Shown piece by piece: positions 1-24,394 of a stretch of DNA of 64,000 nucleotides. Both the position numbers and the translations under genes were made by a program. The notes beneath the pieces were generated by a model. That model saw nothing but the letters and a program-made list of their open reading frames with translations, made no database searches and had not been told where the DNA came from. Within the stretch, counting starts at the first letter, position 1. Every line of letters starts with the position of its first letter. The stretch lies in NCBI RefSeq assembly GCF_988243305.1, contig NZ_OZ547136.1; one strand, written 5' to 3'.

Positions 1-288
1 TGTGCCGCGCTTCTGCTCGCCCTCGCCTCACCCGCGGTACTCGCCGCGCCGGGATCCTGTGAGCGCATACAGAGCGATATATCACAGCGCATTATCAATA
101 ATGGCGTACCCGAAAGCAGCTTCACGTTAAGTATTGTACCCAATGACCAGGTTGATCAGCCTGATTCCCAGGTCGTCGGGCATTGCGCTAATGATACGCA
201 TAAAATTCTCTACACCCGCACCACCAGCGGTAACGTCTCTGCTCCCGCGCAGTCTACCCAGGATGGCGCGCCTGCCGAACCGCAGTAA
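1..288 (+). CDS. ynfD: 3' portion of a DUF1161-family secreted protein gene (YnfD-like), truncated by the window start
   Basis: Frame 1 reads through to TAA at 286-288; position immediately upstream of ynfE matches the K-12 gene order. Confidence 0.55.
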   Translation, partial: CAALLLALASPAVLAAPGSCERIQSDISQRIINNGVPESSFTLSIVPNDQVDQPDSQVVGHCANDTHKILYTRTTSGNVSAPAQSTQDGAPAEPQ

Positions 289-486
289 TACATTATCGAC
301 TGCACGCCGGATACGACACATCCGGCGATTTGAACATACAACATAATCCCACCTTATTACTCATACCCTTCTATTGATATGGATTAATAATTCTTAACCC
401 AAAATAGGTAGACTCCCTCTATTGTTAGCGCGCTAAATATTCAATATATAAACTTTTATATAACAATAAAGAACAGGGAGTGAGTT

Positions 487-2913
487 ATGTCCAAAAATGA
501 ACAAATGGTGGGCATCAGCCGCAGAACACTCGTTAAATCTACCGCGATAGGTTCTCTGGCGCTGGCTGCAGGCGGTTTTTCTTTACCGTTCACCCTACGC
601 AGTGCAGCGGCAGCGGTACAACAGGCCAGCGAAAAAGTGGTCTGGGGTGCCTGTTCCGTCAACTGTGGTAGCCGCTGTGCACTTCGTCTGCATGTTAAAG
701 ATAATGAAGTGACCTGGGTGGAAACTGACAACACCGGCAGCGACGAGTATGGCAATCATCAAGTACGCGCCTGTTTGCGCGGTCGGTCCATCCGTCGACG
801 TATTAATCATCCCGATCGCTTGAATTACCCAATGAAACGCGTGGGCAAACGCGGCGAAGGCAAATTCGAACGGATTAGCTGGGATGAAGCCCTGGATACT
901 ATCGCCAGTAGCCTGAAAAAAACCGTCGAACAATATGGCAATGAGGCTGTATATATTCAGTACTCTTCAGGGATCGTTGGCGGCAATATGACCCGCTCTT
1001 CGCCATCCGCCTCGGCGGTCAAACGCCTGATGAACTGCTACGGCGGTTCACTCAACCAGTATGGCTCCTACAGCACCGCGCAAATTTCCTGTGCCATGCC
1101 CTACACCTACGGCAGTAATGATGGCAACAGCACCACGGATATTGAAAACAGCAAGCTGGTCGTGATGTTTGGTAACAACCCGGCAGAAACCCGCATGAGC
1201 GGCGGTGGCATCACTTATCTTCTTGAAAAAGCGCGCGAGAAATCGAACGCAAAAATGATTGTTATCGATCCGCGATATACCGATACAGCTGCTGGTCGTG
1301 AAGACGAATGGCTACCTATTCGCCCGGGCACCGATGCCGCGCTGGTTGCGGGTATTGCCTGGGTATTGATTAACGAAAATCTCGTTGATCAACCTTTTCT
1401 CGATAAATACTGCGTCGGCTATGACGAAAAAACCTTACCCGCAGATGCACCAAAAAATGGTCACTATAAAGCCTATATTCTTGGTGAAGGTGACGATAAA
1501 ACAGCGAAAACGCCGCAGTGGGCTTCGCAAATTACCGGTATCCCGGTGGACCGTATCATCAAACTGGCGCGTGAAATTGGCACAGCAAAACCCGCTTATA
1601 TCTGCCAGGGCTGGGGACCGCAACGCCAGGCAAACGGCGAGCTGACTGCACGTGCTATTGCGATGTTGCCTATTCTGACGGGCAATGTCGGCATCAGCGG
1701 CGGGAATAGTGGCGCGCGTGAATCGACCTATACCATTACCATAGAACGCCTACCGGTGCTGGATAATCCGGTCAAAACGTCAATCTCCTGCTTCAGCTGG
1801 ACAGATGCTATCGATCATGGCCCGCAAATGACGGCAATCCGCGACGGTGTCCGGGGCAAAGATAAACTGGATGTGCCCATTAAGTTCATCTGGAACTATG
1901 CGGGAAATACCCTCGTTAATCAGCATTCTGACATCAACAAAACGCATGAAATTCTGCAGGACGAATCGAAATGCGAAATGATTGTGGTCATCGAAAACTT
2001 TATGACCTCATCGGCAAAATATGCCGACATTCTGCTGCCAGACCTGATGACCGTTGAGCAGGAAGATATTATTCCTAACGACTACGCCGGTAACATGGGA
2101 TATCTCATTTTCCTTCAGCCAGTCACCAGCGAAAAATTCGAACGCAAACCGATTTACTGGATCCTGAGTGAAGTCGCGAAACGTCTTGGACCTGAAGTCT
2201 ATCAAAAGTTCACTGAAGGTCGCACTCAGGAACAATGGTTACAACATCTGTACGCCAAAATGCTTGCCAAAGATCCGGCGTTACCGTCTTACGACGAACT
2301 GAAAAAAATGGGTATCTATAAGCGTAAAGATCCCAATGGTCATTTTGTCGCCTACAAAGCATTTCGTGACGACCCCGAGGCAAATCCACTTAAAACGCCT
2401 TCCGGTAAGATTGAAATTTACTCCAGCAAGCTGGCGGAAATTGCCCGTACCTGGGAACTGGAAAAAGATGAAGTGATAAGCCCACTGCCGGTTTATGCCT
2501 CAACCTTTGAAGGCTGGGACTCCCCTGAACGTAGCACCTTCCCACTGCAACTGTTTGGTTTCCATTACAAATCCCGTACTCACTCGACCTACGGCAACAT
2601 TGATGTCCTGAAGGCAGCCTGCCGTCAGGAGGTGTGGATCAACCCTATAGATGCACAGAAACGTGGGATTGCCAACGGCGATATGGTGCGGGTGTTTAAC
2701 CATCGTGGCGAAGTTCGGCTACCAGCCAAAGTGACACCACGCATTCTCCCTGGGGTTAGCGCTATGGGCCAGGGAGCCTGGCACGAGGCCAATATGTCTG
2801 GCGATAAAATCGACCATGGCGGCTGTGTGAATACGCTAACCACTCTGCGCCCTTCACCACTGGCGAAGGGAAACCCGCAGCACACGAATCTGGTCGAGAT
2901 CGAAAAAATATAA
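487..2913 (+). CDS. ynfE: Molybdopterin oxidoreductase catalytic subunit, DmsA paralog (selenate reductase) with twin-arginine signal
   Basis: 808-aa ORF; N-terminal SRRTLVKS Tat motif; Cys-rich CSVNCGSRC Fe-S motif; synteny with ynfFGH. Confidence 0.9.
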   Translation: MSKNEQMVGISRRTLVKSTAIGSLALAAGGFSLPFTLRSAAAAVQQASEKVVWGACSVNCGSRCALRLHVKDNEVTWVETDNTGSDEYGNHQVRACLRGRSIRRRINHPDRLNYPMKRVGKRGEGKFERISWDEALDTIASSLKKTVEQYGNEAVYIQYSSGIVGGNMTRSSPSASAVKRLMNCYGGSLNQYGSYSTAQISCAMPYTYGSNDGNSTTDIENSKLVVMFGNNPAETRMSGGGITYLLEKAREKSNAKMIVIDPRYTDTAAGREDEWLPIRPGTDAALVAGIAWVLINENLVDQPFLDKYCVGYDEKTLPADAPKNGHYKAYILGEGDDKTAKTPQWASQITGIPVDRIIKLAREIGTAKPAYICQGWGPQRQANGELTARAIAMLPILTGNVGISGGNSGARESTYTITIERLPVLDNPVKTSISCFSWTDAIDHGPQMTAIRDGVRGKDKLDVPIKFIWNYAGNTLVNQHSDINKTHEILQDESKCEMIVVIENFMTSSAKYADILLPDLMTVEQEDIIPNDYAGNMGYLIFLQPVTSEKFERKPIYWILSEVAKRLGPEVYQKFTEGRTQEQWLQHLYAKMLAKDPALPSYDELKKMGIYKRKDPNGHFVAYKAFRDDPEANPLKTPSGKIEIYSSKLAEIARTWELEKDEVISPLPVYASTFEGWDSPERSTFPLQLFGFHYKSRTHSTYGNIDVLKAACRQEVWINPIDAQKRGIANGDMVRVFNHRGEVRLPAKVTPRILPGVSAMGQGAWHEANMSGDKIDHGGCVNTLTTLRPSPLAKGNPQHTNLVEIEKI

Positions 2914-2970
2914 CCCACTACAACCATAAATTCTGGCATGACATTTTGTTTGAAAAGCAATAAGTGAGTA

Positions 2971-5397
2971 ATGATGAAAATCCATACCACAGAGGCGCTC
3001 ATGAAGGCTGAAATCAGCCGTAGAAGTCTGATGAAAACCTCCGCACTTGGCAGTCTTGCGCTGGCAAGCAGTGCTTTCACTCTGCCATTTTCCCAAATGG
3101 TCCGAGCGGCAGAGGCACCGGTAGAAGAGAAAGCGGTCTGGAGTTCCTGCACCGTTAACTGCGGGAGCCGCTGTCTGTTACGTTTGCATGTGAAAGATGA
3201 CACCGTGTACTGGGTGGAGTCTGATACGACAGGTGACGACGTCTACGGTAATCATCAGGTTCGGGCATGTTTACGCGGGCGCTCTATCCGCCGACGGATG
3301 AATCATCCTGACAGGTTGAAATATCCCATGAAGCGCGTCGGCAAGCGCGGTGAAGGTAAATTTGAACGGATAAGTTGGGATGAAGCCCTGGATACCATCA
3401 GTGATAATCTTCGGCGGATCCTTGAAGATTACGGCAATGAGGCTGTACATGTCCTGTACGGAACAGGCGTAGATGGCGGAAACATCACCAACTCGAACGT
3501 CCCGTACCGTCTGATGAACTCTTGCGGTGGTTTTCTCAGTCGCTATGGCAGCTACAGTACCGCTCAAATCAGTGCCGCAATGAGTTATATGTTCGGTGCC
3601 AATGATGGCAACAGCCCGGATGATATAGCCAATACGAAACTGGTCGTTATGTTCGGAAATAACCCGGCAGAAACCCGGATGAGCGGCGGTGGTGTCACTT
3701 ACTACGTCGAGCAAGCCCGAGAACGTTCAAACGCACGCATGATCGTCATCGATCCACGTTATAACGACACTGCTGCCGGGCGTGAAGATGAATGGCTGCC
3801 AATTCGCCCAGGCACCGATGGCGCACTGGCCTGTGCGATTGCCTGGGTACTGATTACTGAAAACATGGTCGATCAGCCATTTCTCGACAAATATTGTGTT
3901 GGTTACGATGAAAAAACGCTGCCCGCCAACGCACCACGTAACGCGCATTATAAAGCCTATATTCTGGGCGAAGGGCCTGACGGCATAGCTAAAACGCCGG
4001 AATGGGCAGCAAAAATCACCAGCATCCCGGCAGAAAAAATTATCCATTTGGCACGAGAGATCGGTTCAGCAAAACCTGCTTATATTTGTCAGGGTTGGGG
4101 GCCACAACGACACTCCAACGGCGAACAAACGTCCCGCGCTATTGCCATGCTTTCCGTTCTCACCGGTAACGTCGGCATAAACGGCGGCAACTCAGGTGTA
4201 CGCGAAGGTAGCTGGGATCTGGGGGTAGAATGGTTCCCGATGCTCGAGAATCCTGTTAAAACGCAGATTTCCGTCTTTACATGGACAGATGCCATCGACC
4301 ATGGTACGGAAATGACCGCGACCCGTGATGGTGTTCGTGGAAAAGAAAAACTGGATGTCCCCATCAAGTTTTTATGGTGCTACGCCAGTAACACATTGAT
4401 CAATCAACATGGCGACATCAATCACACCCATGAGGTGCTTCAGGATGACAGCAAGTGCGAGATGATTGTTGGCATTGACCACTTCATGACTGCCTCGGCT
4501 AAGTATTGCGATATCCTGTTGCCCGACCTGATGCCAACAGAGCAAGAAGACCTTATCTCTCACGAATCTGCCGGGAATATGGGCTATGTGATCCTCGCCC
4601 AACCCGCAACCTCAGCAAAATTTGAACGCAAACCCATCTACTGGATGCTGAGTGAAGTCGCCAAACGCTTAGGACCAGACGTTTATCAAACCTTTACTGA
4701 AGGCCGCAGTCAGCACGAATGGATCAAATATCTCCATGCGAAAACGAAGGAACGTAACCCTGAGATGCCCGACTACGAGGAGATGAAAACGACCGGGATC
4801 TTTAAGAAAAAATGCCCGGAAGAACACTACGTCGCTTTCCGCGCATTCCGTGAAGATCCACAGGCAAACCCGTTGAAAACACCTTCGGGGAAAATCGAAA
4901 TTTATTCTGAACGACTGGCGACGATTGCGGATACCTGGGAATTGAAAAAAGATGAAATTATTCATCCCCTTCCTGCGTATACCCCAGGTTTTGATGGCTG
5001 GGACGATCCCCTGCGGAAAACCTATCCACTGCAGCTAACGGGCTTCCACTACAAAGCGCGTACCCACTCCAGCTACGGCAATATTGATGTGTTACAGCAG
5101 GCCTGCCCACAAGAGGTGTGGATCAACCCTATTGATGCTCAGGCACGCGGTATCCGTCATGGCGATACCGTGCGGGTATTTAACAATAATGGAGAAATGC
5201 TGATTGCCGCAAAAGTGACTCCGCGTATTCTGCCTGGCGTTACCGCCATCGGGCAAGGTGCGTGGCTTAAAGCGGATATGTTTGGTGACCGGGTCGATCA
5301 CGGCGGCAGTATTAATATTCTGACCTCTCACCGCCCTTCACCGCTGGCAAAGGGAAACCCGTCGCACAGCAATCTTGTCCAGATCGAAAAGGTTTAA
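2971..5397 (+). CDS. ynfF: Molybdopterin oxidoreductase catalytic subunit, second DmsA paralog
   Basis: 808-aa ORF highly similar to the preceding ORF; Tat motif SRRSLMKT; start may be the ATG at 2974. Confidence 0.9.
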   Translation: MMKIHTTEALMKAEISRRSLMKTSALGSLALASSAFTLPFSQMVRAAEAPVEEKAVWSSCTVNCGSRCLLRLHVKDDTVYWVESDTTGDDVYGNHQVRACLRGRSIRRRMNHPDRLKYPMKRVGKRGEGKFERISWDEALDTISDNLRRILEDYGNEAVHVLYGTGVDGGNITNSNVPYRLMNSCGGFLSRYGSYSTAQISAAMSYMFGANDGNSPDDIANTKLVVMFGNNPAETRMSGGGVTYYVEQARERSNARMIVIDPRYNDTAAGREDEWLPIRPGTDGALACAIAWVLITENMVDQPFLDKYCVGYDEKTLPANAPRNAHYKAYILGEGPDGIAKTPEWAAKITSIPAEKIIHLAREIGSAKPAYICQGWGPQRHSNGEQTSRAIAMLSVLTGNVGINGGNSGVREGSWDLGVEWFPMLENPVKTQISVFTWTDAIDHGTEMTATRDGVRGKEKLDVPIKFLWCYASNTLINQHGDINHTHEVLQDDSKCEMIVGIDHFMTASAKYCDILLPDLMPTEQEDLISHESAGNMGYVILAQPATSAKFERKPIYWMLSEVAKRLGPDVYQTFTEGRSQHEWIKYLHAKTKERNPEMPDYEEMKTTGIFKKKCPEEHYVAFRAFREDPQANPLKTPSGKIEIYSERLATIADTWELKKDEIIHPLPAYTPGFDGWDDPLRKTYPLQLTGFHYKARTHSSYGNIDVLQQACPQEVWINPIDAQARGIRHGDTVRVFNNNGEMLIAAKVTPRILPGVTAIGQGAWLKADMFGDRVDHGGSINILTSHRPSPLAKGNPSHSNLVQIEKV

Positions 5398-5407
5398 GGA
5401 GTAGCCC

Positions 5408-6025
5408 ATGACCACACAATATGGATTTTTTATCGATTCCAGCCGCTGTACTGGCTGTAAAACCTGCGAACTGGCGTGCAAAGATTTTAAAGATCTTGGC
5501 CCGGAAGTCAGTTTCCGCCGTATTTATGAATATGCTGGCGGCGACTGGCAGGAAGATAATGGCGTCTGGCACCAGAACGTGTTCGCTTATTATCTCTCCA
5601 TCTCCTGTAACCATTGCGATGACCCCGCATGTACAAAAGTCTGCCCCAGCGGCGCAATGCATAAGCGTGAAGATGGCTTTGTGGTGGTTGATGAAGATGT
5701 TTGTATCGGCTGCCGCTACTGCCACATGGCTTGTCCGTACGGCGCGCCACAGTACAATGCTGAAAAAGGGCACATGACGAAGTGCGATGGTTGTTATTCG
5801 CGCGTCGCCGAGGGGAAACAACCCATATGTGTCGAATCCTGCCCGCTGCGTGCACTTGAGTTCGGTCCAATTGAAGAGCTGCGCCAGAAGCACGGCACTC
5901 TGGCTGCCGTCGCGCCACTACCGCGCGCGCATTTCACAAAACCCAATATCGTTATCAAACCTAACGCCAACAGCCGCCCGACCGGCGATACCACTGGTTA
6001 TCTGGCTAATCCGGAGGAAGTGTAA
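5408..6025 (+). CDS. ynfG: 4Fe-4S ferredoxin-type electron transfer subunit (DmsB paralog)
   Basis: 205-aa ORF with multiple CxxCxxCxxxCP clusters; directly follows ynfF. Confidence 0.9.
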   Translation: MTTQYGFFIDSSRCTGCKTCELACKDFKDLGPEVSFRRIYEYAGGDWQEDNGVWHQNVFAYYLSISCNHCDDPACTKVCPSGAMHKREDGFVVVDEDVCIGCRYCHMACPYGAPQYNAEKGHMTKCDGCYSRVAEGKQPICVESCPLRALEFGPIEELRQKHGTLAAVAPLPRAHFTKPNIVIKPNANSRPTGDTTGYLANPEEV

Positions 6026-6026
6026 A

Positions 6027-6881
6027 ATGGGAAATGGATGGCATGAATGGCCACTGGTTATCTTTACCGTATTGGGTCAATGCGTAGTAGGCGCGCTGAT
6101 TGTTAGCGGAATTGGCTGGTTCGCCGCCAATAATGACGCAGACCGTCAGCGTATTGTCCGTGGCATGTTTTTCCTCTGGCTGTTGATGGGCATCGGGTTT
6201 ATTGCCTCTGTCATGCACCTGGGATCGCCACTGCGAGCGTTTAACTCGCTGAATCGAATCGGAGCTTCTGGTCTGAGTAACGAGATTGCTGCCGGTTCAA
6301 TATTTTTTGCCGTTGGCGGATTATGGTGGCTGGTGGCGGTCATCGGTAAAATGCCGCAAGCGTTGGGGAAACTCTGGTTACTTGTCAGCATGGCGCTCGG
6401 CGTCATTTTCGTCTGGATGATGACCGGCGTGTATCAAATCGACACCGTGCCAACCTGGCATAACGGTTACACTACGCTGGCTTTCTTCCTGACAGTATTG
6501 TTGAGCGGTCCAATACTTGCTGCCGCAATTCTGCGGGCAGCCCGCATTACATTTAATACCACACCCTTTGCCATCATTAGCGTTCTGGCGCTGATCGCTT
6601 GTGCCGGGGTGATTGTGCTGCAAGGTTTGTCTCTGGCGTCTATTCACTCATCCGTACAACAAGCCAGCGCACTGGTACCAGATTACGCCTCCTTACAGGT
6701 CTGGCGTGTGGTATTGTTATGCACAGGTCTAGGATGCTGGCTTTGTCCGCTCATTCGTCGCCGTGAACCTCACGTTGCCGGACTTGTTCTGGGGCTAATC
6801 CTCATACTTGGCGGTGAGATGATCGGGCGTGTGCTCTTTTATGGCCTGCACATGACGGTAGGAATGGCTATTGCAGGTTAA
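6027..6881 (+). CDS. ynfH: DmsC-like membrane anchor subunit
   Basis: Hydrophobic 284-aa product starting MGNGWHEWPLVIF at the ATG just after the ynfG stop; the track ORF 5787..6881 is an upstream in-frame extension. Confidence 0.85.
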   Translation: MGNGWHEWPLVIFTVLGQCVVGALIVSGIGWFAANNDADRQRIVRGMFFLWLLMGIGFIASVMHLGSPLRAFNSLNRIGASGLSNEIAAGSIFFAVGGLWWLVAVIGKMPQALGKLWLLVSMALGVIFVWMMTGVYQIDTVPTWHNGYTTLAFFLTVLLSGPILAAAILRAARITFNTTPFAIISVLALIACAGVIVLQGLSLASIHSSVQQASALVPDYASLQVWRVVLLCTGLGCWLCPLIRRREPHVAGLVLGLILILGGEMIGRVLFYGLHMTVGMAIAG

Positions 6882-6923
6882 CAAATTGGTGCGGGGCAAC
6901 CCGCACATTTCAGGATGTTAGGA

Positions 6924-7538
6924 ATGACCCATTTTTCACAGCAAGATAATTTTTCTGTCGCGGCGCGCGTGTTGGGCGCGCTGTTTTATTACGCTCCAGA
7001 GAGTGCGGAAGCCGCACCTCTGGTTGCGGTACTCACCCGTGACGGCTGGGAAACTCAGTGGCCTCTACCCGAAGCGTCATTAGCGCCGCTGGTGACGGCT
7101 TTTCAGGCACAGAGTGAAGAGACTCGCGCCCAGGCCTGGCAGCGTTTGTTTGTCGGCCCGTGGGCACTGCCGTCACCGCCGTGGGGGTCGGTCTGGCTGG
7201 ATCGCGAATCTGTGCTGTTTGGCGATTCAACATTGGCACTTCGTCAGTGGATGCGCGAGAAAGGCATTCAGTTTGAAATGAAGCAAAACGAACCGGAAGA
7301 TCATTTTGGTTCACTGCTGTTGATGGCTGCGTGGTTGGCGGAGAATGGTCGCCAGACAGAATGCGAAGAATTGCTGGCATGGCACCTTTTTCCGTGGTCA
7401 ATACGTTTTCTTGACGTTTTTATCGAAAAAGCAGAACACCCTTTCTACCGTGCACTGGGTGAACTGGCTCGCTTAACGCTGGCGCAATGGCAATCACAAC
7501 TGTTAATTCCTGTCGCGGTTAAACCACTCTTTCGATAG
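6924..7538 (+). CDS. dmsD: Tat proofreading chaperone for DMSO reductase-type enzymes
   Basis: Product begins MTHFSQQDN (internal Met of track ORF 6915..7538); position after ynfH. Confidence 0.85.
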   Translation: MTHFSQQDNFSVAARVLGALFYYAPESAEAAPLVAVLTRDGWETQWPLPEASLAPLVTAFQAQSEETRAQAWQRLFVGPWALPSPPWGSVWLDRESVLFGDSTLALRQWMREKGIQFEMKQNEPEDHFGSLLLMAAWLAENGRQTECEELLAWHLFPWSIRFLDVFIEKAEHPFYRALGELARLTLAQWQSQLLIPVAVKPLFR

Positions 7539-7731
7539 GATCACCGTAATATTGCCGGATGGTGGCGATTACGCGCAATTCGGCAATAATAGGTTACAGT
7601 GTCACGTTTTTTATCTCTTAAAGCACGCACTGCTTTTGCGTCTGGCCTCTTTTGCCGCAAAATAGTCGCCCGTGTTTCATTGCCCATTTCTGCTCATGCA
7701 TCATCTACACATCTATCCGGATCTGCGCACT

Positions 7732-8988
7732 ATGTTCCGCCGTCTGCTTATCGCAACAGTCGTCGGTATTCTCGCGGCCTTTGCCGTTGCCGGGTTTCGT
7801 CATACGATGCTGCTACTGGAGTGGTTGTTCCTCAATAATGACTCGGGCAGTCTGGTCAATGCAGCGACAAATCTTTCCCCGTGGCGACGGCTGCTAACTC
7901 CGGCGCTCGGCGGACTGGCGGCGGGTTTGTTGCTGATGGGCTGGCAGAAATTTACCCAGCAACGCCCTCATGCGCCGACCGATTACATGGAAGCGTTGCA
8001 AACCGATGGGCAGTTTGATTACGCAGCAAGCCTGGTTAAATCGCTTGCCTCTCTGCTGGTAGTAACCAGCGGCAGTGCAATTGGTCGCGAAGGTGCGATG
8101 ATTCTTTTAGCTGCCCTTGCCGCCTCCTGTTTTGCCCAACGTTTTACGCCACGCCAGGAGTGGAAATTATGGATCGCCTGTGGAGCTGCGGCGGGAATGG
8201 CTGCGGCCTATCGCGCCCCGCTTGCTGGCAGTTTATTTATAGCCGAAGTGCTGTTTGGCACTATGATGTTGGCCTCTCTCGGCCCGGTGATTATTTCCGC
8301 CGTCGTGGCGTTGCTGGTTAGCAATCTGATTAATCATAGCGACGCGTTACTCTACAGCGTACAACTCTCAGTGACGATTCAGGCTCGTGACTATGCGCTG
8401 ATTATCAGTACAGGTGTGCTGGCAGGTCTGGGCGGACCACTGTTGTTAACGTTAATGAACGCCTGTCATCGTGGATTTGTAAGTCTCAAACTTGCGCCGC
8501 CCTGGCAACTGGCACTGGGCGGGTTGATCGTGGGTCTGCTTTCCCTGTTCACACCTGCAGTGTGGGGCAACGGCTATAGCACCGTACAATCCTTTTTAAC
8601 CGCCCCGCCACTGTTAATGATCATTGCCGGGATCTTCCTCTGTAAACTGTTTGCCGTGCTGGCGAGTAGTGGTTCTGGCGCGCCCGGTGGTGTCTTTACA
8701 CCGACGCTATTTATCGGTCTTGCCATTGGCATGTTGTATGGTCGTAGCCTGGGATTATGGTTCCCTGATGGCGAAGAAATTACGCTTTTACTCGGATTGA
8801 CCGGGATGGCGACACTGTTGGCGGCAACCACGCACGCGCCGATTATGTCGACGTTGATGATATGTGAAATGACCGGGGAGTATCAGCTACTCCCCGGTTT
8901 ATTGATTGCCTGCGTAATTGCGTCGGTAATTTCGCGGACGTTACACCGTGACTCTATCTACCGCCAGCACACTGCGAAGCATAGCTAA
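7732..8988 (+). CDS. clcB: ClC-family voltage-gated chloride channel / H+-Cl- antiporter
   Basis: Polytopic membrane protein; start taken at [12 protein letters not shown] (internal Met of track ORF 7672..8988) to give 418 aa. Confidence 0.8.
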
Positions 8989-16329: not shown

Positions 16330-16466
16330 ATGGCAAAGCCGATCATCACGCTCAATGGCCTAAAAATCGTCATTATGTTGGGAATGCTGGTCATTATTCT
16401 CTGCGGTATCCGTTTTGCCGCCGAGATCATCGTGCCGTTTATTCTCGCATTATTTATTGCTGTTAT
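16330..16466 (+). pseudogene. tqsA: 5' fragment of the AI-2 exporter gene tqsA (first ~46 codons), interrupted by the island; the frame runs on into island sequence and stops at 16492-16494
   Basis: Encodes [45 protein letters not shown], then diverges; the rest of the gene resumes at 31796. Confidence 0.8.
16458..16466. repeat. Left copy of 9-bp direct repeat TGCTGTTAT at the island/host junction (putative att core or target duplication)
   Basis: Identical 9-mer at 31787-31795; both lie exactly where tqsA reading frame is broken and resumed. Confidence 0.65.
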
Positions 16467-17231
16467 ATATAACTTATTTCACATAACACGTTGATTTAAT
16501 TAAATAATTTTCACCGCAAAAAGTGCCAAAAATCGCAAAATGACTACACCAGTGACTACACCGTTCGGTGCACTGTATGAAACAACGTGGAACAAATAGA
16601 CACAAGAAATATACAGGCGGATCATCTTTCCAGGGGGAAGCGCACCAATTCATGAGGGGCGTTAATGTCGATATGGGGATCCCCACCTACCGGAATTTTT
16701 TTCCGGTTAAACGTTAATCAGGCTGGTGGGCTTTACCTGTTCGGTAGGTGTTATGATTATCGTAATACCTTTCCCCCAATGGGGTAAAAGCATCAACCGT
16801 AACGAAAGTCGTTATGGTTGCCACTGATACCCCAAATTTGGGTATCACGAGTAAGACCCAAAATCTGGGTGTTACTCTTACTACCCAAACTACGGGTAGT
16901 TTCCGTAGTTTCATGGTCGAGTTGCAGATCTGCAACTCCCCCATTAACCACAGGCGAATTTCCGCCTTCGGTCATTCCTTAATCATCTGCGTAATCATAA
17001 TGATTATTCAGCAAGCGCAATTTTGCACTTTGCTTAAAGTTCAGCGAGTTACCGCGCCGACTTCCTCAAATTGAGGTTTCCGAAAATATCAGCGGGTTAG
17101 CGATTAAGCTGATCATTAATTAAACTGCGAAAATTTCGTAGTTTGTGACTGTCTTTCAGGCAGCTTGTTAACAGTCCTCAGAAGCGAGGGATGTAGCCAC
17201 CCATTTTTGGTCCGTCGGGAATATCAACCAG

Positions 17232-17513
17232 TTACCGCCGCAACCGCTCCGGCTTCTTCCAGTGGTACGTTATTTTCTCCTTCTCCCGATACATCTCCAC
17301 GCGGCGACGGTAGGCCAGCAACTCAAGAACTCTGGTTCGTATGTTGCGCATATCCACGCCATTAAGTTCTATACCATCACGGCGCATCACCTCAGCAACA
17401 ACACGCGCATAGTTTTCGGCTGTCACGCTGTCCGGCTGCGTGGCCTGTTCGTCAGCCTGCTGGCTGATTCCGGCAACGCGGCGGATTAATCCCGTTATTT
17501 CGGCTTCTGTCAT
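17232..17513 (-). CDS. Hypothetical protein, last gene of the packaging operon
   Basis: 93-aa ORF immediately downstream of the large terminase on the same strand; no recognisable motif. Confidence 0.4.
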   Translation of the reverse strand: MTEAEITGLIRRVAGISQQADEQATQPDSVTAENYARVVAEVMRRDGIELNGVDMRNIRTRVLELLAYRRRVEMYREKEKITYHWKKPERLRR

Positions 17514-17526
17514 GCTGCTGACCTCA

Positions 17527-19188
17527 TTACACCCCGCTAAATTCTTCCAGTTTCTGGCGGTGGCTGTCGCTTATATCAAAAGCAAAATCCTCATGCTCTG
17601 CCTGGAATGTACCAAACGCCATCAGCGCCGCCACGCTCGGGTCTATCTTGTTCGGTGATTTTTTCTTGTTCGGCTTGATATTGGCGTTCGCGTCACTCTG
17701 CATCACGACGTTACTCATCGACCAGGACAACACCGGATCGCCACGATGCACAATCACCCTGCGGTTAACAAAAACTTCGAACGATTTCGCCGCCGGACTG
17801 AATCTGAGGTAGGTTTGCGGGAACGGCTCCACCTCAAAACCTGCCCCCTGTAATTGCGTTCTGAGATGCGTGGCGTTCCACGTATCAAAGCCCACCAGCC
17901 TGATATTAAATTTCTCCGCGTCCTGCATGATGTCATCTCTGATCCGGTCGTAATCAATGCAGTCGCCAGGCGTTGTGCGTATCCAGCCTGCTTTAGCCCA
18001 CTGACGATAGATGGCGCGGTTTTTATTGGCGGGGTTCTGTAGCTGAAATTCCGGCAGATAGTGACGGGAAACCAGCATAATGGTTTTACCGACCGGAAAG
18101 GCATAGCACACGCTGGAAATATCGCTGGTTGATGATAAGTCCAGCCCCGCGTAACACTCCTGGCCGTGTAAATCTTCCTCCGTGAACGTTCCGGCACACT
18201 CAGCCCATGCGCCGTTACCCATCCACGGGGTAGCCCCCAGGCACCAGATATTAAATCGCTTTGTCATCATCTCCACCCACTGCGACGGAATACCCCGCGC
18301 TTTCTGGATGGTTGAGGCCAGTTTTTCACGATCCACGGAAACATCAATATTAGGGTTCGCCTTTATCCACATCGCCGGATCATCAACCTCGTTTTCGTCG
18401 TCCAGTTCGTAAATCAGTACAAAAATTGAATCGTTGACCTCTTCGCCGTCCAGGATCTGGCAGCAATAATCATAGTGCTGCTTACAGGCTGAAACGACGT
18501 TACTGCCTGATGTGGTAATAGCAAATAACAGCCCTTCGGGACGTGCGCCCATCCCCAGCTCAAGCGCGGAATAAACGCCGTTATCGGGGTGCAAGTGGTA
18601 TTCGTCCACGATGGAAAGGCTGGGGTTTGTTCCCTCGATGGTTGCCGCTTTTGCTGCCAGCGGCTTTAACAGGCTGTTGCTTTTCGGGTGTATCACCTTA
18701 TGCGCCTGAATATTCACCCGCCTGCGTAACGGTCGGGATAAAAGGCACATCTGACGCGCATCATCAAAGACGATCCGCGCCTGGTCACGGCTCACCGCTG
18801 CGGTGTAAATATCCTGCTGACCGTTCTCCATAATCAGAAACCAGTTAGCCAGAATCGCGGCGGTCGTGGATTTCGCATTTTTGCGCGGCACTTCGATAAA
18901 GGCGCTCGTGTATTTGCGCCGTCCGGTGGCCTTAACCTTAAAGCCGAGGATGCACGCAAAGGCGAACTGCTGCCACGGCTCCAGCTCAATGGGTCTGCCA
19001 CGCATCGGCCCTTTTACGTGCGGGCACACCCTGGAAAAGGCAATAAACCGCTCCACAACCTCACGATCGAACGTGTAAAGGGGGCTTTCAAGGTCCGAAA
19101 AGTACCGTTTAACGGCCTGTTTCAGCCGTTTACAGGCCGGAATTTTGCCCGTTTTTACGTCTTCTGCGTACTTATTCCAGGCGGTCAA
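17527..19188 (-). CDS. Phage terminase large subunit
   Basis: 553-aa ORF with ATPase N-terminal region and nuclease C-terminal region typical of Terminase_1-type TerL; follows TerS. Confidence 0.85.
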   Translation of the reverse strand: MTAWNKYAEDVKTGKIPACKRLKQAVKRYFSDLESPLYTFDREVVERFIAFSRVCPHVKGPMRGRPIELEPWQQFAFACILGFKVKATGRRKYTSAFIEVPRKNAKSTTAAILANWFLIMENGQQDIYTAAVSRDQARIVFDDARQMCLLSRPLRRRVNIQAHKVIHPKSNSLLKPLAAKAATIEGTNPSLSIVDEYHLHPDNGVYSALELGMGARPEGLLFAITTSGSNVVSACKQHYDYCCQILDGEEVNDSIFVLIYELDDENEVDDPAMWIKANPNIDVSVDREKLASTIQKARGIPSQWVEMMTKRFNIWCLGATPWMGNGAWAECAGTFTEEDLHGQECYAGLDLSSTSDISSVCYAFPVGKTIMLVSRHYLPEFQLQNPANKNRAIYRQWAKAGWIRTTPGDCIDYDRIRDDIMQDAEKFNIRLVGFDTWNATHLRTQLQGAGFEVEPFPQTYLRFSPAAKSFEVFVNRRVIVHRGDPVLSWSMSNVVMQSDANANIKPNKKKSPNKIDPSVAALMAFGTFQAEHEDFAFDISDSHRQKLEEFSGV

Positions 19189-19528
19189 GCTCGTCCTCTT
19201 CTTCTGTTTCCGGTGGATTTTTACGGCGGCTTATCGGGTCAAAACCGAGCAAGGAGGCCATTTTTATCATCACCCTTTCAGCGTCGGATTTTGCGCTTAA
19301 TGCGGGGTTTCTGCTCTCGCCGCCCTGACTGTTAACAATGCTGAACCCGCGCGCCGCAAGGTCTGCAACGGCTTTCCGGTAAATGGAGTAGTTGACACAA
19401 TACAGTTCCAGATTGCTCCAGTCGGCGGGGGTCAGGTCTCCCCGTTCCGCAAGCTGCCGCGATTTTTCCCGCCACTGCTTCACGGCGATGTCATCCAGGT
19501 AGGCGGGGGCTTTCGGTGGTCTTGCCAT
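19172..19528 (-). CDS. Phage terminase small subunit (P27-family-like)
   Basis: 118-aa ORF with acidic C-terminus, immediately upstream of and overlapping TerL; family assignment from recall. Confidence 0.7.
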   Translation of the reverse strand: MARPPKAPAYLDDIAVKQWREKSRQLAERGDLTPADWSNLELYCVNYSIYRKAVADLAARGFSIVNSQGGESRNPALSAKSDAERVMIKMASLLGFDPISRRKNPPETEEEDELDRLE

Positions 19529-19817
19529 ACTTATTTTTTCGCCAGATTATTTTTCAAAAAATTCCCGTGCATAAAAATTTGAGGAGGCGTTCGGTGCCCG
19601 GCGGGGTCGGGTTTGTCCTGAAAACGCCCCCCACCCCGTCATACAGCCTCATCAGCGATTGCGGAAACATTCCATAACCTCGCGGTCACGGTCGGTTAAT
19701 CGCTTCGCTGTGATGCGTTCTGCGCGTCCTGACGCTTTATCTTTATGCCCTGTTTCCTGTGTCTTCCATGCGTCACGCTGCCTTATAAGTCCACGGATAA
19801 GGCGGTTTTGTTCCCGC
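19529..19817. other. Candidate cos/packaging-site region between HNH endonuclease and TerS
   Basis: 289-bp intergenic gap with G+C-rich tracts (GGTGCCCGGCGGGGTCGGG, CGCCCCCCACCCCG); location inferred by analogy with HK97-type HNH-dependent cos phages. Confidence 0.3.
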
Positions 19818-20258
19818 TCATTCATCAGCGTCATACATCCAGTTATTGCGGTTAGCGGACCGTTCTTCCTCTTCACGAAATCCACCTGCGGCACGCTTGC
19901 TTTTTGTTGCCGGATCAAGCCATTTCGTTTTCTGGTTATGACACGCCTGACACAATGGCTGATGGTTCCATTCGGGCCAGAAGAGAACATCATCGCCGCC
20001 ATCGATGGGGATAATGTGATCCACCACCACGGCGGGCGTATATATCCCCTTCTCAAGGCATCGCACGCATAACGGGTTTTTACTCAGATACATGGCGCGG
20101 TATTTGTCCCACTGTCTGGAGTACCCACGCGCGCGGCGGTGTCCTCGTCTGGCATCCTCTGCACGCCATGCCGCCCGCCTGTGCTCCTCACACTTACCGG
20201 ACTTAACGCGCCTGTTACAGCCTGGTTCTGTACATCGTCTTAATGGTTGCCACGGCAT
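19818..20258 (-). CDS. HNH endonuclease
   Basis: Cys-rich N-terminus (CTEPGCNRR...CEEH) and VVDHIIP...NHQPLCQACHNQKT HNH motif; sits immediately upstream of terS. Confidence 0.8.
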   Translation of the reverse strand: MPWQPLRRCTEPGCNRRVKSGKCEEHRRAAWRAEDARRGHRRARGYSRQWDKYRAMYLSKNPLCVRCLEKGIYTPAVVVDHIIPIDGGDDVLFWPEWNHQPLCQACHNQKTKWLDPATKSKRAAGGFREEEERSANRNNWMYDADE

Positions 20259-20554
20259 CAGTACACCCCCACATCACGGTAAGCCGTCCAGAGTGCGCCT
20301 ATCGTCATGGGTACGCGCGTTTTTGCGTTATCCGCGACAATCTGGCGATTTTCATACAGGTGAGCGATAAACATCATGCAGCCAATCTTTATGGCTGGCG
20401 TGAACTCCAGCCCGTCATCAAAGCGCCTGCCTATGTGTATCTGGCACGCCTCAAGCGATGCGGCAATGTATCCGCTGATTAACTGGTCTTCATCGTCGCC
20501 ATCGATGCGGCAATGGAGTTTCACTTCTTCCAGGGTGATAAGTTCTTCTGTCAT
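20258..20554 (-). CDS. Phage gp6-like head-tail connector protein
   Basis: 98-aa ORF MTEELITLEEVKLHCRIDGDDEDQLISGYIAAS... resembling the gp6-like connector family; within the head module. Confidence 0.6.
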   Translation of the reverse strand: MTEELITLEEVKLHCRIDGDDEDQLISGYIAASLEACQIHIGRRFDDGLEFTPAIKIGCMMFIAHLYENRQIVADNAKTRVPMTIGALWTAYRDVGVY

Positions 20555-20889
20555 TTTTCCGCGCCCTCACGACAAAGAATTTCAAGGCGTGTCCTGGCGG
20601 CATCCGGCAACGGTTGCCCGATGATATTCAGTACACGCCCCGCCAGCGGCCCTGTATTGACCTTTATCCGACTGGTGGCGTTGATGTCCTTCCGGTAGCG
20701 TATCCATATCCTTACCGTTCCAGTCGCCAGCTCTGCACCTGATGAAATGGCCTCCTTGCTGCTGATCATGTTCACGCTTGCCCAGAGTGTGTGACCGTCC
20801 ACCCACGTTTCGAGTATTTCGCCGGTTATATCCCTGGTCTGTTTCAGGGTCTGAATCGTTACCCTGTCACGCAGTCGCCCTATGTTCAT
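20551..20889 (-). CDS. Phage head closure / head-tail joining protein
   Basis: Start taken at MNIGRLRDRVTIQ, overlapping the portal stop by 4 nt; resembles head-tail joining family. Confidence 0.6.
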   Translation of the reverse strand: MNIGRLRDRVTIQTLKQTRDITGEILETWVDGHTLWASVNMISSKEAISSGAELATGTVRIWIRYRKDINATSRIKVNTGPLAGRVLNIIGQPLPDAARTRLEILCREGAEK

Positions 20890-22097
20890 TCCGGTTTTTC
20901 TCCCTCGCTGATTTTTACTTCCTGTTTCCATGCCTGGCTGAACTCATCACCACCATCACGCGGGGACAGCCCTTCACGTTCGCGGGCTTCGTTCGGGCAC
21001 ATAACGCCGGATTTGATGCCGCGTTCATAGGTGGCAAAGCGTTCGCCAGGTGTGGCCCGTAACAGGTCCGCGCTGTCAAACTCCACCTGATACCGGATAC
21101 CAGGTACAGGCGAGGCCACCAGCAGGGCGTTTTTTATCTGCTGCTCAAAGTTCGCCAGCCACGGGCGCATCGTCATGGTGAGAAATGCGCGGCTTGCCTC
21201 GCTGAAGTTGCTGTAGGTGCTGTTGCTGTATTCCTGCAAAAAAATCGGCGAGACGTTGAACATTCGGGCGATGTCTTCAATGGTGAAGCGACGGGAGGCC
21301 AGCCATTCGGCATCCTGATTACTCATGCCCAGCTGCTGATAGCTCATCCCCCCTTCAAGGATGGGCGTTTTTCCGGCGTTTCTGGCCCCTTTGTAGCGTT
21401 CCAGTGCGGCTAATGCCTGTTTGCCCTTCACGCCGTCCAGCCATTCGCCTGACGTGATAACCCCTGCCGCCATCATGCCATCACGCATCACGCTCGCGCC
21501 GTGGCGTTGTTGGGCCAGCCCAAGCCCCAGCGATTCGCGGCAGATGGTTACAGGTGAGCGCCCCATAAAACCGTCATCCGTGGAGTAACGAAGGTGGAGA
21601 ACCTCCCACGGTAAATAGTTGCGGGTGTTTCCGGTGTAGGCGTCAGTGATGCAGTAGCGCCAGTTATGATCACCTGTCTGCTCCACGTTCACCGACTGCG
21701 GCGGGTAAGGATGTAAAGCCACCGGAAAACCATCACGCCCCCACTGAATCACCGCATAAGCATTACCGTTTAACAGGCAGTGGCGGATCATCATTCGCTT
21801 AAACTGGTAGGGAGTCTGCCACGCGTTCGGGCGCTCGTTGAGGATGTGATCGACCGGATGAGAATCAAGCCACTCGCGGGCCTCCTTCCCCTTCTCATTG
21901 CGTACCAGGTACAGGTAACACGGCATGGTAGCCACCGCCTCAGAGATGACCGTCACGGCGTTCATGACGGCGGGCAGTGATTCCGCTGTCCCCGATGATA
22001 CGTACTCACCCGCCCCCGTGTTCGATGTGCCAGCCAGCGCCATAAACTCATCAAGCGTCATGCTGCGCTGCTCTTTTTTTCTTCTGAAAGGCCACAT
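20886..22097 (-). CDS. Phage portal protein (HK97 family)
   Basis: 403-aa ORF immediately downstream of the prohead protease; composition and size typical of HK97-type portals. Confidence 0.8.
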   Translation of the reverse strand: MWPFRRKKEQRSMTLDEFMALAGTSNTGAGEYVSSGTAESLPAVMNAVTVISEAVATMPCYLYLVRNEKGKEAREWLDSHPVDHILNERPNAWQTPYQFKRMMIRHCLLNGNAYAVIQWGRDGFPVALHPYPPQSVNVEQTGDHNWRYCITDAYTGNTRNYLPWEVLHLRYSTDDGFMGRSPVTICRESLGLGLAQQRHGASVMRDGMMAAGVITSGEWLDGVKGKQALAALERYKGARNAGKTPILEGGMSYQQLGMSNQDAEWLASRRFTIEDIARMFNVSPIFLQEYSNSTYSNFSEASRAFLTMTMRPWLANFEQQIKNALLVASPVPGIRYQVEFDSADLLRATPGERFATYERGIKSGVMCPNEAREREGLSPRDGGDEFSQAWKQEVKISEGEKPE

Positions 22098-22098
22098 A

Positions 22099-22671
22099 TC
22101 ACACCCCCGCTAAATCCACCCACCAGCGGCGATTATCCGCACGCGGCATTTTTTCGGGGTGCTGCTCATACAGGGAACGGCGGGCCAGCTCCACGCCGGA
22201 ATCGGGGTAAGCCGGTACCGATGTAACGGTAATTTCGTACAGTTCCGCCACCAGCACGGTGCGCACGCATGGATCTGTTGTGGTATCCCATACATCCTTA
22301 CGGGAGCGAAAGCCAAAGCTCATCCCCGAGATGTCCCCACGCTTAACCAGTTCGATAACGTCGCGCCCTGTACTGGTATCCGGTGGGGTCAGTTCAAAGC
22401 GTAACCCTGTTTCGTCCTCTTCCAGTTTCAGCGTGCCGGAACGGGTGCGCCCCAGTAACATGCTGTGGTCATGCTCATACAGGCCGCGAACGTCATTACC
22501 CGCCGCAAGCCACTCAGTAAACGCCCCCCGCTGGAATTTTTCGTAAAACTCCCCCCATAGCAGTTCTGAAAGCTTATCCCAGCGAACAACGTAGCCCGTC
22601 AGCGTACCGGCTCCGCTGGTAGTGATTTCCGATGACCGGATTTCCATACTCTTCATAATTTTTTCACCCAT
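22099..22671 (-). CDS. HK97-family prohead maturation protease
   Basis: 190-aa ORF between major capsid and portal genes; sequence resembles the S78-type prohead protease family. Confidence 0.75.
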   Translation of the reverse strand: MGEKIMKSMEIRSSEITTSGAGTLTGYVVRWDKLSELLWGEFYEKFQRGAFTEWLAAGNDVRGLYEHDHSMLLGRTRSGTLKLEEDETGLRFELTPPDTSTGRDVIELVKRGDISGMSFGFRSRKDVWDTTTDPCVRTVLVAELYEITVTSVPAYPDSGVELARRSLYEQHPEKMPRADNRRWWVDLAGV

Positions 22672-22710
22672 AAAACACTAAAGGGGCTTTTAAGCCCCTT
22701 CTGTATGCTG

Positions 22711-23868: not shown

Positions 23869-23906
23869 AAAAAAAAGTCCTGGGGTTAAGTAAGGAACTC
23901 CAGGAC
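23869..23906 (-). terminator. Stem-loop plus U8 run immediately abutting the capsid gene start codon
   Basis: Minus strand reads GTCCTGGAGTTCCTTACTTAACCCCAGGAC followed by TTTTTTTT then ATG. Confidence 0.5.
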
Positions 23907-24111
23907 GCGGCAAACACTCAACCGTTTTTCATAAGGAAATCAGCAATCGCACCGATCGTTTTCCCGCCTGGTAATGAATATTGGCGAGCACATTAACAGG
24001 CGGGAAAGTGGCCCCAGCGTCCTGGCACCACGGGCGAGAATAATCATGATTCAGTTCGGGTAAAATATGCCGATCCGCTCAGTGAACAACGTGGAACAAC
24101 CACGAACAAAT

Positions 24112-24149
24112 AATTTACAAAAAATAACAAAAAGCCGGATTGCTCCGGC
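24112..24149 (-). terminator. Rho-independent terminator downstream of the small gene 24170..24394
   Basis: Minus strand GCCGGAGCAATCCGGC hairpin followed by TTTTTGTTATTTTTT. Confidence 0.6.
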
Positions 24150-24169
24150 TGTATGTGCTGTATGGGTGC

Positions 24170-24394
24170 TCAGTCTCTGATCCCTTTCAGAAATTCTATC
24201 AATGCATCTGTCTGTTCAGGATTTACTGCCAGCATTTCACCGGATAGCGCGCAACGAACAAAACCATGATGATCCTTTTCAATCAGTGCGCCCGTCTCCA
24301 GGAATGCGCGGTAATCATTGATGCTCATCGTCTCCATGTTGTCAGCATGGTATTTATCACGCTGTTTTAATATCTCATCAAATTTCATCGGCAT
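24170..24394 (-). CDS. Small hypothetical protein (74 aa) in a terminator-bounded cassette
   Basis: ATG at 24394 preceded by AGAGGAAAAAACA RBS; terminators on both sides. Confidence 0.55.
   Translation of the reverse strand: MPMKFDEILKQRDKYHADNMETMSINDYRAFLETGALIEKDHHGFVRCALSGEMLAVNPEQTDALIEFLKGIRD

Follow-up and report, generated by a model that had tools for sequence, protein, structure and literature searches.

The adjacent ynfE and ynfF genes of an Escherichia coli ynfEFGH-dmsD operon as old sister paralogues

The genes of the ynf operon of Escherichia coli, their paralogy with dmsA, their dependence on the Tat pathway and on DmsD, their control by FNR and RyhB and their role in selenate and tellurate reduction have already been published. 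The ynfEFGH-dmsD operon is directly activated by FNR from a site at -40.5 (Myers et al. 2013, PMC3688515), and RyhB represses a ynfF(-60..+24)-lacZ fusion (Wang et al. 2015, PMC4666370). The literature, including PMC5203670, describes binding of DmsD to the signal peptides of DmsA, YnfE and YnfF. The role as a selenate/tellurate reductase is based on genetic work with E. coli K-12 and Salmonella, cited here second-hand. The Salmonella enzyme is known by genetics and not by direct biochemical assay, and ynfE and ynfF are side by side there too (PMC5203670).

The locus described here lies in a window of 64,000 nucleotides (contig NZ_OZ547136.1 of RefSeq assembly GCF_988243305.1). Positions 487-5397 almost certainly hold ynfE and ynfF, with which a chromosomal ynfE-ynfF-ynfG-ynfH-dmsD operon opens; they appear to be ancient sister paralogues under purifying selection, with one FNR-dependent promoter and with RyhB acting over the ynfF ribosome-binding site. 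No evidence contradicting the identification as ynfE and ynfF was found. The genes of the operon are as follows.

ynfE, 487..2913, + strand: intact, 808 aa; predicted Tat-exported catalytic subunit with Mo-bisPGD and [4Fe-4S] (NF041885, 1797.8 bits; 98.9% identity to K-12; Pfam domains)
ynfF, 2974..5397, + strand: intact, 807 aa when read from the RefSeq start; predicted paralogous catalytic subunit (NF041884, 1772.8 bits; 99.6% identity to K-12; Pfam domains)
ynfG, 5408..6025, + strand: four-cluster iron-sulfur electron-transfer subunit, DmsB paralogue (TIGR02951, 264.8 bits; 100% identity to K-12 YnfG, 94.1% to DmsB)
ynfH, 6027..6881, + strand: predicted membrane anchor and quinol-oxidising subunit of the DmsC family (Pfam DmsC, 423 bits; 97.5% identity to K-12 YnfH, 57.7% to DmsC)
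dmsD, 6924..7538, + strand: predicted Tat-proofreading chaperone (NF008632, 343.4 bits)

The ORF listing contained two intact + strand frames of 808 aa each, 487..2913 and 2971..5397, and a sequence-only reading made before this analysis had reported two adjacent ORFs of that length. That length stands for ynfE, but ynfF has 808 aa only when read from the ATG at 2971; RefSeq and the K-12 annotation place its start at the second of two adjacent ATGs (2974), which gives 807 aa. The gene names given in that reading were borne out by the annotated locus in E. coli genomes and by the NCBIfam models, as each protein passes only its own. In a nucleotide search with window positions 1-8000, 5,424 of 5,426 complete E. 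coli genomes matched the query, and at least 80% of it was present in 5,060 of the 5,426, with ynfE, ynfF, ynfG, ynfH and dmsD annotated; the gene order was that of strain 2012C-4221 and of K-12. The description of the region as ordinary host sequence holds; upwards of 5,000 complete E. coli genomes carry the ynf operon.

All five genes are on the same strand, and the gaps from ynfE through ynfF, ynfG and ynfH to dmsD are 60, 10, 1 and 42 nt. The following features flank or separate the two catalytic genes.

ynfD, 3' part, 1..288, + strand: gene of a DUF1161 protein upstream of the operon (coordinates transferred from the closest genome; TAA stop at 286-288)
Inverted repeat, 305..327, + strand: CGCCGGAT-ACGACAC-ATCCGGCG and then ATTT, just 3' of ynfD, read from the sequence
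FNR-box-like site, 374..387, + strand: TTGATATGGATTAA, differing at one position from TTGAT-N4-ATCAA and lying some 100 nt before the start codon of ynfE
ynfE-ynfF spacer, 2914..2973, + strand: ynfF Shine-Dalgarno region and RyhB-complementary element

The window begins about 18 nt inside ynfD (2983-3288 of the closest-genome locus corresponds to -17..288 of the window). The inverted repeat is possibly the ynfD terminator; the terminator scan does not list it because its T tail is short. Terminator and sigma-70 scans of the 60-nt spacer found no terminator-like or promoter-like site, and Rfam and tRNA scans over the whole window gave no matches. As a separate observation, a 15.3-kb island resembling a capsid-forming PICI is inserted in tqsA at 16467-31786, 9 kb downstream of the operon.

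Each protein was assigned using curated NCBIfam cut-offs of 1675 bits for NF041885 (selenate/tellurate reductase subunit YnfE), 1650 for NF041884 (selenate/tellurate reductase subunit YnfF), 1600 for NF011566 (DmsA) and 777.7 for TIGR02166 (dmsA_ynfE). YnfE (487-2910) and YnfF (2971-5394) exceeded the cut-offs of their own models, with 1797.8 and 1772.8 bits. The cross-scores fell below them, YnfE reaching 1477.5 bits on the YnfF model and YnfF 1481.4 on the YnfE model, as did the scores of both on the DmsA model (1345.5 for YnfE and 1317.1 for YnfF). On TIGR02166, YnfE scored 1398.2 bits and YnfF 1284.8. The order of Pfam domains is identical in the two proteins, with PF04879 (Molybdop_Fe4S4) followed by PF00384 (Molybdopterin) and PF01568 (Molydop_binding).

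The matching Tat signals and cysteine clusters pointed out in the sequence-only reading were recovered. The predicted twin-arginine motifs are SRRTLVK at residues 11-17 of YnfE and SRRSLMK at residues 15-21 of YnfF (from the RefSeq start), each with a hydrophobic stretch after it. The group C-x3-C-x3-C-x31-C occurs at C56/60/64/96 in YnfE and C59/63/67/99 in YnfF, aligns with that of DmsA and is predicted to supply the ligands of the FS0 [4Fe-4S] cluster. A search for solved structures found none for YnfE, YnfF or DmsA, the nearest being Rhodobacter DMSO reductase and TorA, which served solely to locate the molybdenum-ligand serine. Ser196 of YnfE sits in the stretch YGSYSTAQIS, which YnfF shares unchanged, and it aligns with Ser147, the established molybdenum ligand of R. 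sphaeroides DMSO reductase (1eu1); both proteins are predicted to carry a serine ligand. YnfE and YnfF, each of about 90 kDa, are predicted periplasmic catalytic subunits that belong to the DmsA branch within the Mo-bisPGD (DMSO reductase) family.

The two genes are regulated differently after transcription: a single FNR-type promoter precedes ynfE, and a RyhB site covers the ribosome-binding site of ynfF only. The site at 374..387 was the sole FNR-box-like match in a pattern search of the first 26 kb of the window, and a -10-like hexamer, TAGACT, is found at 409-414; from these two elements a transcription start is predicted near position 421. A sigma-70 promoter scan upstream of ynfE found nothing, as expected when an FNR-dependent class II promoter has a poor -35. 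It is proposed that ynfE and ynfF would be co-transcribed from this single FNR-dependent promoter, and that the iron-starvation sRNA RyhB would pair over the ynfF ribosome-binding site, and likewise at dmsA, but not at ynfE. The core of the RyhB-complementary element, AAGCAATAAGTGAGTAATG, lies at 2955-2973. RyhB duplexes were computed with the single-stranded RyhB core alone, since full-length RyhB gave over-extended, uninformative structures. The ynfF duplex had an energy of -23.4 kcal/mol, compared with -12.8 +/- 3.2 for shuffled sequences (3 of 500 shuffles were as good). At ynfE a weak duplex of -17.9 kcal/mol was found (32 of 500 as good), so that pairing there would be absent only in relative terms.

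Based on family knowledge and the literature, DmsD would bind the signal peptide of YnfE or YnfF while the cofactor is inserted, and Tat would then export the folded catalytic subunit along with YnfG, the iron-sulfur subunit common to both catalytic subunits. The exported pair would dock on the anchor YnfH, which would take electrons from menaquinol, and selenate (and tellurate) would be reduced at the periplasmic face, with YnfE probably the chief contributor by analogy with Salmonella. YnfE and YnfF of this strain are putative selenate/tellurate reductase catalytic subunits, as they are in K-12.

The sequence-only reading had described the two products as similar throughout and had named pairwise alignment as the check. 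BLASTP of YnfE against YnfF gave 568 identities in 801 positions (71%), 85% positives, 9 gap positions and 1229 bits (E = 0), well above anything chance would give and in agreement with that description. The two identical peptides it quoted, HQVRACLRGRSIRRR (YnfE 91 / YnfF 95) and KRVGKRGEGKFERISWDEALDTI (YnfE 117 / YnfF 121), are present in both proteins within larger identical runs of 18 and 26 residues, and in total the proteins share 13 identical runs of 10 aa or more. Runs of up to 26 aa could indicate that the duplication is recent or that similarity is upkept by ongoing gene conversion. However, the DNA of the two genes is only 70% identical, and identity falls to 47% at third codon positions and 41% at four-fold sites, which is near saturation. 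No 50-codon window along the genes exceeded 60% third-position identity, the longest exact DNA match was 20 nt, and a scan of both genes for exact matches and third-position identity found no conversion tract. The identical peptides are spelled by different codons in the two genes and do not vary in DmsA either, a sign of functional constraint. The codon-position and exact-match data thus refute a recent duplication or ongoing conversion, an explanation that has practically no chance of being correct. A similar proposal, that gene conversion accounts for the 94% identity of YnfG and DmsB, was rejected since their four-fold sites are as saturated (40%) as those of the other pairs.

A neighbour-joining tree was built from corrected p-distances; its sample was picked by one exact peptide pattern among the matches listed and is not a census. 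In this sampled tree the YnfE clade, the YnfF clade and the two combined were each recovered in 200 of 200 bootstraps. The YnfE clade holds Budvicia, Serratia, Rahnella, Klebsiella and Enterobacter, and the YnfF clade includes Morganella. Because each clade contains other Enterobacterales families, the split between them predates the radiation of families in that order, which, together with the saturated synonymous sites and the lack of a conversion tract, supports the earlier view that the duplication is old. DmsA formed a distinct clade that includes the Pasteurellaceae and Vibrionaceae enzymes, with YnfE and YnfF outside it. Among YnfE, YnfF and DmsA, 103 sites are shared by YnfE and YnfF but not DmsA, 76 by YnfE and DmsA but not YnfF, and 67 by YnfF and DmsA but not YnfE, and the split between YnfE and YnfF appears to be nearly as old as the split of both from DmsA.

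How the pair came to be adjacent is a separate matter. The earlier term "tandem duplication" is upheld as far as the sister status of the paralogues (200/200) goes, and duplication in place fits that status; the in-place origin itself is an inference, as adjacency is patchy and was seen in only part of the Enterobacteriaceae (Escherichia and Pseudocitrobacter among the matches listed, and Salmonella according to the literature), and elsewhere ynfE adjoins dmsA or stands without ynfF. It could instead be that no duplication in place occurred, and that an already diverged ynfE-type gene and ynfF-type gene, the latter having its own B and C partners, were joined by rearrangement, ynfE being an add-on before various A-B-C modules. 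Several layouts favor such a juxtaposition. Three Rahnella species, Serratia silvae and S. microhaemolytica have an orthologue of YnfE (79-82% identity) immediately before a true orthologue of DmsA (72-82%), after which come B, C and DmsD. Among the matches listed, a YnfF-type gene (79%) is the only A gene of the Morganella A-B-C operon, and many Enterobacteriaceae have ynfE-G-H-dmsD or merely ynfE-dmsD. The DNA of the two B-C modules of Budvicia is 99-100% identical, so that its two-operon layout must be a recent one, derived from E-dmsA-B-C-D. However, sister clades with full bootstrap support are most simply explained by tandem duplication, and an ancestral [E-F-G-H][dmsA-B-C-D] arrangement with losses explains every observed layout, including the odd place of dmsD after ynfH in E. 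coli. In E. whittamii a copy has visibly been lost through recombination between ynfE and ynfF, so repeated independent losses are plausible. We consider juxtaposition to be improbable on balance. A more speculative suggestion, which we think rather unlikely, is that the ynfE type is not the product of a simple in-place duplication and is a portable extra catalytic subunit that borrows whichever iron-sulfur and anchor subunits are available (it stands before dmsABC in Yersiniaceae and Budviciaceae, before ynfFGH in Escherichia and Salmonella and before only dmsD in Lelliottia and Pluralibacter), the E. coli copies having been specialised by regulation (RyhB on ynfF only) and possibly by substrate.

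A further idea is that one copy is a redundant, functionless duplicate in decay. YnfF adds little to selenate reduction in Salmonella (PMC5203670), the closest genome, 2012C-4221, has a frameshift in ynfE, and among the matches listed ynfF was cleanly deleted in E. whittamii and is absent from many genera, with none found in Klebsiella or Enterobacter. However, neither frame in the window is disrupted or shortened, YnfE having 9 and YnfF 3 substitutions relative to K-12, and all cofactor-binding motifs are kept in both proteins. The YnfF lineage has been retained since before the Enterobacterales families diverged, and the conserved RyhB control particular to ynfF speaks for a distinct role that has been maintained. 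Decay of either copy is thus very unlikely, and two maintained paralogues that diverged long ago is the reading preferred here.

What this study adds to the published work is modest and comparative, namely that the split between ynfE and ynfF is older than the Enterobacterales families, that the tandem arrangement is patchy and that recombination between the paralogues can remove a copy, E. whittamii being the example. These points may be of interest for molybdoenzyme evolution and for the reason that E. coli retains two isoenzymes. The closest described system is ynfEFGH-dmsD of E. coli K-12 (b1587-b1591), whose genes, gene order, spacing and flanks (ynfD upstream and clcB downstream) all match. 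The DNA is 98.1% identical over 8.9 kb and the proteins are 98.9% (YnfE), 99.6% (YnfF), 100% (YnfG), 97.5% (YnfH) and 97.5% (DmsD) identical, so the differences in the operon are only allelic; K-12 lacks the tqsA island. DmsABC of E. coli shares the three-subunit design and the chaperone DmsD, and identity to DmsA is 67.8% for YnfE and 66.6% for YnfF, with 94.1% between DmsB and YnfG and 57.7% between DmsC and YnfH. The Tat motif, the cysteine group and RyhB control are shared by dmsA and ynfF. However, DmsABC is encoded at a separate locus with a single catalytic gene, and its substrates are given in the literature as S- and N-oxides, compared with selenate and tellurate for Ynf. Salmonella enterica has the same operon, with YnfE and YnfF also 71% identical and dependent on Tat and DmsD (PMC5203670). 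It is the only system in which both copies have been genetically dissected, and there most of the contribution comes from YnfE, with a minor part for YnfF (PMC5203670).

The catalytic genes of the operon are two adjacent reading frames on the plus strand:

487-2913, plus strand, ynfE, 808 aa in the ORF list
2971-5397, plus strand, ynfF, 808 aa in the ORF list

The sequence-only reading gave both products as 808 aa. This agrees with the ORF list, but RefSeq and K-12 annotation place the start of YnfF at window 2974, the latter of two neighbouring ATG codons, which makes it 807 aa. The likeness it claimed was borne out by BLASTP, which gave 71% identity (568/801 residues) and 85% positives (1229 bits, E = 0). 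Both peptides it had quoted as identical were found in each protein within longer identical runs (18 and 26 residues), and in total 13 identical runs reach 10 aa or more. The twin-arginine motifs (SRRTLVK in YnfE, SRRSLMK in YnfF) and the cysteine spacing C-x3-C-x3-C-x31-C match as it had described, and both proteins have the same three Pfam domains (Fe4S4, molybdopterin oxidoreductase and dinucleotide-binding). YnfE Ser196, in a run identical in YnfF, aligns opposite Ser147 of R. sphaeroides DMSO reductase, the established molybdenum ligand. A structure search found no solved structure of YnfE, YnfF or DmsA.

The gene names were also right, both by E. coli annotation and because each protein passes only its own NCBIfam model. 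YnfE reaches 1797.8 bits with the YnfE model (cut-off 1675) and 1477.5 with the YnfF model (cut-off 1650), whereas YnfF scores 1772.8 on its own model and 1481.4 on that of YnfE. Both pass the DmsA/YnfE subfamily model TIGR02166, but both fail the model for DmsA proper (cut-off 1600). The judgement that this is ordinary host sequence was correct. Megablast of window 1-8000 matched 5,424 of 5,426 complete E. coli genomes (best match 99.3% identity), and 5,060 of those matching covered 80% or more of the query; ynfE, ynfF, ynfG, ynfH and dmsD are annotated beneath the match. Gene order and flanks (ynfD upstream; clcB, a bioD-type gene and mlc downstream) are those of E. coli 2012C-4221 and K-12. 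Compared to K-12, YnfE is 98.9% identical (9 substitutions), YnfF 99.6% (3 substitutions), YnfG 100%, and YnfH and DmsD each 97.5%. The annotation of the most similar genome, 2012C-4221 (99.3%), gives ynfE as a pseudogene with a frameshift (L001 3487-5912); in the window the gene is intact.

The duplication was called old, and this is well supported by synonymous saturation and by YnfE and YnfF clades that span Enterobacterales families. The two genes are 70% identical in DNA but only 47% at third codon positions and 41% at four-fold-degenerate sites; third-position identity does not exceed 60% in any 50-codon window, and the longest exact match is 20 nt. Such values mean that synonymous sites are essentially saturated and, with no exact match beyond 20 nt, rule out a recent gene-conversion tract between ynfE and ynfF. 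Four-fold-site identity is 34-40% for ynfE/dmsA, ynfF/dmsA, ynfG/dmsB and ynfH/dmsC. In a three-way alignment YnfE and YnfF agree against DmsA at 103 sites, YnfE and DmsA against YnfF at 76, and YnfF and DmsA against YnfE at 67, so the YnfE/YnfF split is only slightly younger than that from DmsA. In Salmonella, too, YnfE and YnfF share 71% identity (Connelly et al. 2016, PMC5203670).

Related loci were collected by a plain-DNA scan of a species-representative genome collection with back-translated DKYCVGYDEKT, a peptide that does not vary among the three paralogues. The scan gave at least 120 loci, which sample the distribution without covering it in full. A neighbour-joining tree was built from 63 near-full-length catalytic subunits among the matches listed (744 columns, 200 bootstraps). 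Among these, 18 sequences form a YnfE clade (200/200) that includes Budvicia, Serratia, Rahnella, Klebsiella, Enterobacter, Cedecea and Pseudocitrobacter, and the YnfF clade (200/200) includes E. albertii, Morganella and one contig binned as Deferribacteraceae. YnfE and YnfF together are monophyletic (200/200), and the Pasteurellaceae and Vibrionaceae enzymes fall with DmsA (180/200 and 167/200). The split is therefore older than the diversification of the Enterobacterales families. The Deferribacteraceae entry is a 4.9-kb contig (L065) binned with a metagenome-assembled genome of that distant phylum; at 175-3645 it carries a YnfF-type gene, 72% identical to E. coli YnfF, accompanied by B-subunit and DmsD homologues. 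Its occurrence there probably reflects mis-binning or horizontal transfer.

The tandem arrangement is patchy among the matches listed.

Gene order at loci among the matches listed (G and H, YnfG and YnfH type; B and C, DmsB and DmsC type)
E. albertii: ynfE-ynfF-G-H-dmsD
Pseudocitrobacter: ynfE-ynfF visible; locus stops within ynfF
Klebsiella spallanzanii, Pseudenterobacter: ynfE-G-H-dmsD, without ynfF
Cedecea sulfonylureivorans: beginning of ynfE-G-H-dmsD order; ynfE cut at locus edge
Enterobacter asburiae: beginning of ynfE-G-H-dmsD order; locus stops within ynfG
Lelliottia (L061), Enterobacter genomosp. O (L096), Pluralibacter (L044, L054): ynfE-dmsD alone
Serratia silvae, Rahnella woolbedingensis: ynfE-dmsA-B-C(-D)
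R. bruchi, R. victoriana, Serratia microhaemolytica: same ynfE-dmsA junction; loci cut at one end
Morganella: YnfF-type gene as the only A gene of an A-B-C operon
Budvicia (L016): ynfE-B-C adjoining dmsA-B-C-D

In Yersiniaceae (Serratia and Rahnella; L036, L080, L085, L012, L110) a YnfE orthologue shares an operon of the dmsABC-dmsD type with a true dmsA orthologue, which follows it directly. At L061, L096, L044 and L054 dmsD comes straight after ynfE, with neither an iron-sulfur nor an anchor gene between them, which implies that YnfE would borrow DmsB and DmsC of the dms operon in these organisms. The ynfE reading frame at L044 appears split. The two B-C modules of Budvicia are 99-100% identical in DNA; this layout is thus recent, and the near-identity indicates a very recent internal duplication or conversion.

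An ancestral layout [E-F-G-H][dmsA-B-C-D] followed by lineage-specific losses would account for every arrangement in the matches listed, and also for dmsD behind ynfH in E. coli. That two older paralogues were instead brought side by side, and not duplicated in place, seems rather unlikely to us. Loss of one paralogue by recombination with the other is directly visible in Escherichia whittamii (L119 4502-6950), where the order is ynfE-ynfG-ynfH-dmsD and ynfF is cleanly absent. The single gene is YnfE-like throughout (97%) but its product ends ...IEKV; the final codons, like the spacer before ynfG, come from ynfF. The switch falls within the shared AGATCGAAAA, so recombination between the tandem paralogues removed exactly one repeat unit.

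An FNR-box-like TTGATATGGATTAA at 374-387 is consistent with direct activation of the operon by FNR from a site at -40.5 (Myers et al. 2013, PMC3688515). A scan of the 60-nt ynfE-ynfF spacer found no promoter-like or terminator-like site. However, AAGCAATAAGTGAGTAATG at 2955-2973 in this spacer pairs in a computed duplex with the core of the iron-starvation sRNA RyhB (-23.4 kcal/mol vs -12.8 +/- 3.2 in shuffles; 3/500 equally good). A similar site is present at dmsA (-30.8 kcal/mol; 0/500), whereas the ynfE duplex is not outstanding (-17.9 kcal/mol; 32/500). The predicted pairing agrees with ynfF and dmsA being validated as translationally repressed RyhB targets (Wang et al. 2015, PMC4666370). 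The signal-peptide n-region of YnfF is also like that of DmsA and different from that of YnfE, as also remarked in PMC5203670. A shared operon with no spacer promoter and a RyhB site at ynfF suggest that ynfE and ynfF are co-transcribed yet differently controlled.

In the mechanism proposed from the literature, DmsD would bind the signal peptides of DmsA, YnfE and YnfF; the cofactor-loaded catalytic subunit would leave by the Tat pathway, most likely together with YnfG, and would dock on YnfH, which would oxidise quinol. Fujita et al. reportedly described in 2021 a role in tellurate reduction. Family knowledge and the literature suggest that the enzyme is the selenate reductase of Salmonella and E. 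coli. The Salmonella study (PMC5203670) names YnfE as the main contributor to selenate reduction in Salmonella, and an E. coli ynfEF deletion reportedly loses this activity.

The window is otherwise collinear with K-12 apart from a 15.3-kb insertion in tqsA (16467-31786), bordered by the 9-bp direct repeat TGCTGTTAT at 16458-16466 and 31787-31795. This island carries genes for an integrase, regulators, a primase-helicase, a major capsid protein, a prohead protease, a portal protein, an HNH endonuclease and both terminase subunits (small and large); genes for tails or lysis were not found among them. The island is laid out like capsid-forming PICIs, phage satellites of which EcCIEDL933 is the prototype. 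At least 80% of window 8001-33000 is covered in just 186 of 5,426 E. coli genomes. Two minus-strand ORFs of 344 and 237 aa (28024-29771), which separate the replication module from the integrase, have only weak, regulator-like PHROG matches, the repressor-family match of the former being confined to its C-terminal 60 residues, and the region is annotated differently in the best-matching genome; these ORFs are possible accessory cargo. The K-12 alignment also breaks at about 49117-49147, between ydgA and uidC, where about 150 bp of K-12 (L006 24902-25053) are missing and 31 nt of the window align with K-12 on either side of the gap, suggesting a small repeat-mediated indel.

The ynfE/ynfF finding is thus real, rightly named and rightly called ordinary. 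Everything essential on this pair is already published. What the comparison adds is minor: the tandem is patchily distributed, E. whittamii has lost ynfF by deletion, and ynfE precedes dmsA in Yersiniaceae. A single exact 38-nt run between ynfG and dmsB (codons 39-51) is the sole possible short conversion patch. Compared to the Dms system, identity is about 67% for the catalytic subunits and 58% for the anchors, but YnfG (5408-6025) and K-12 DmsB (L002 3915-4532) are far more alike, at 94.1%. Gene conversion was rejected as the source of this likeness because four-fold sites, at 40% identity, are equally saturated; it reflects strong purifying selection on the iron-sulfur subunit.
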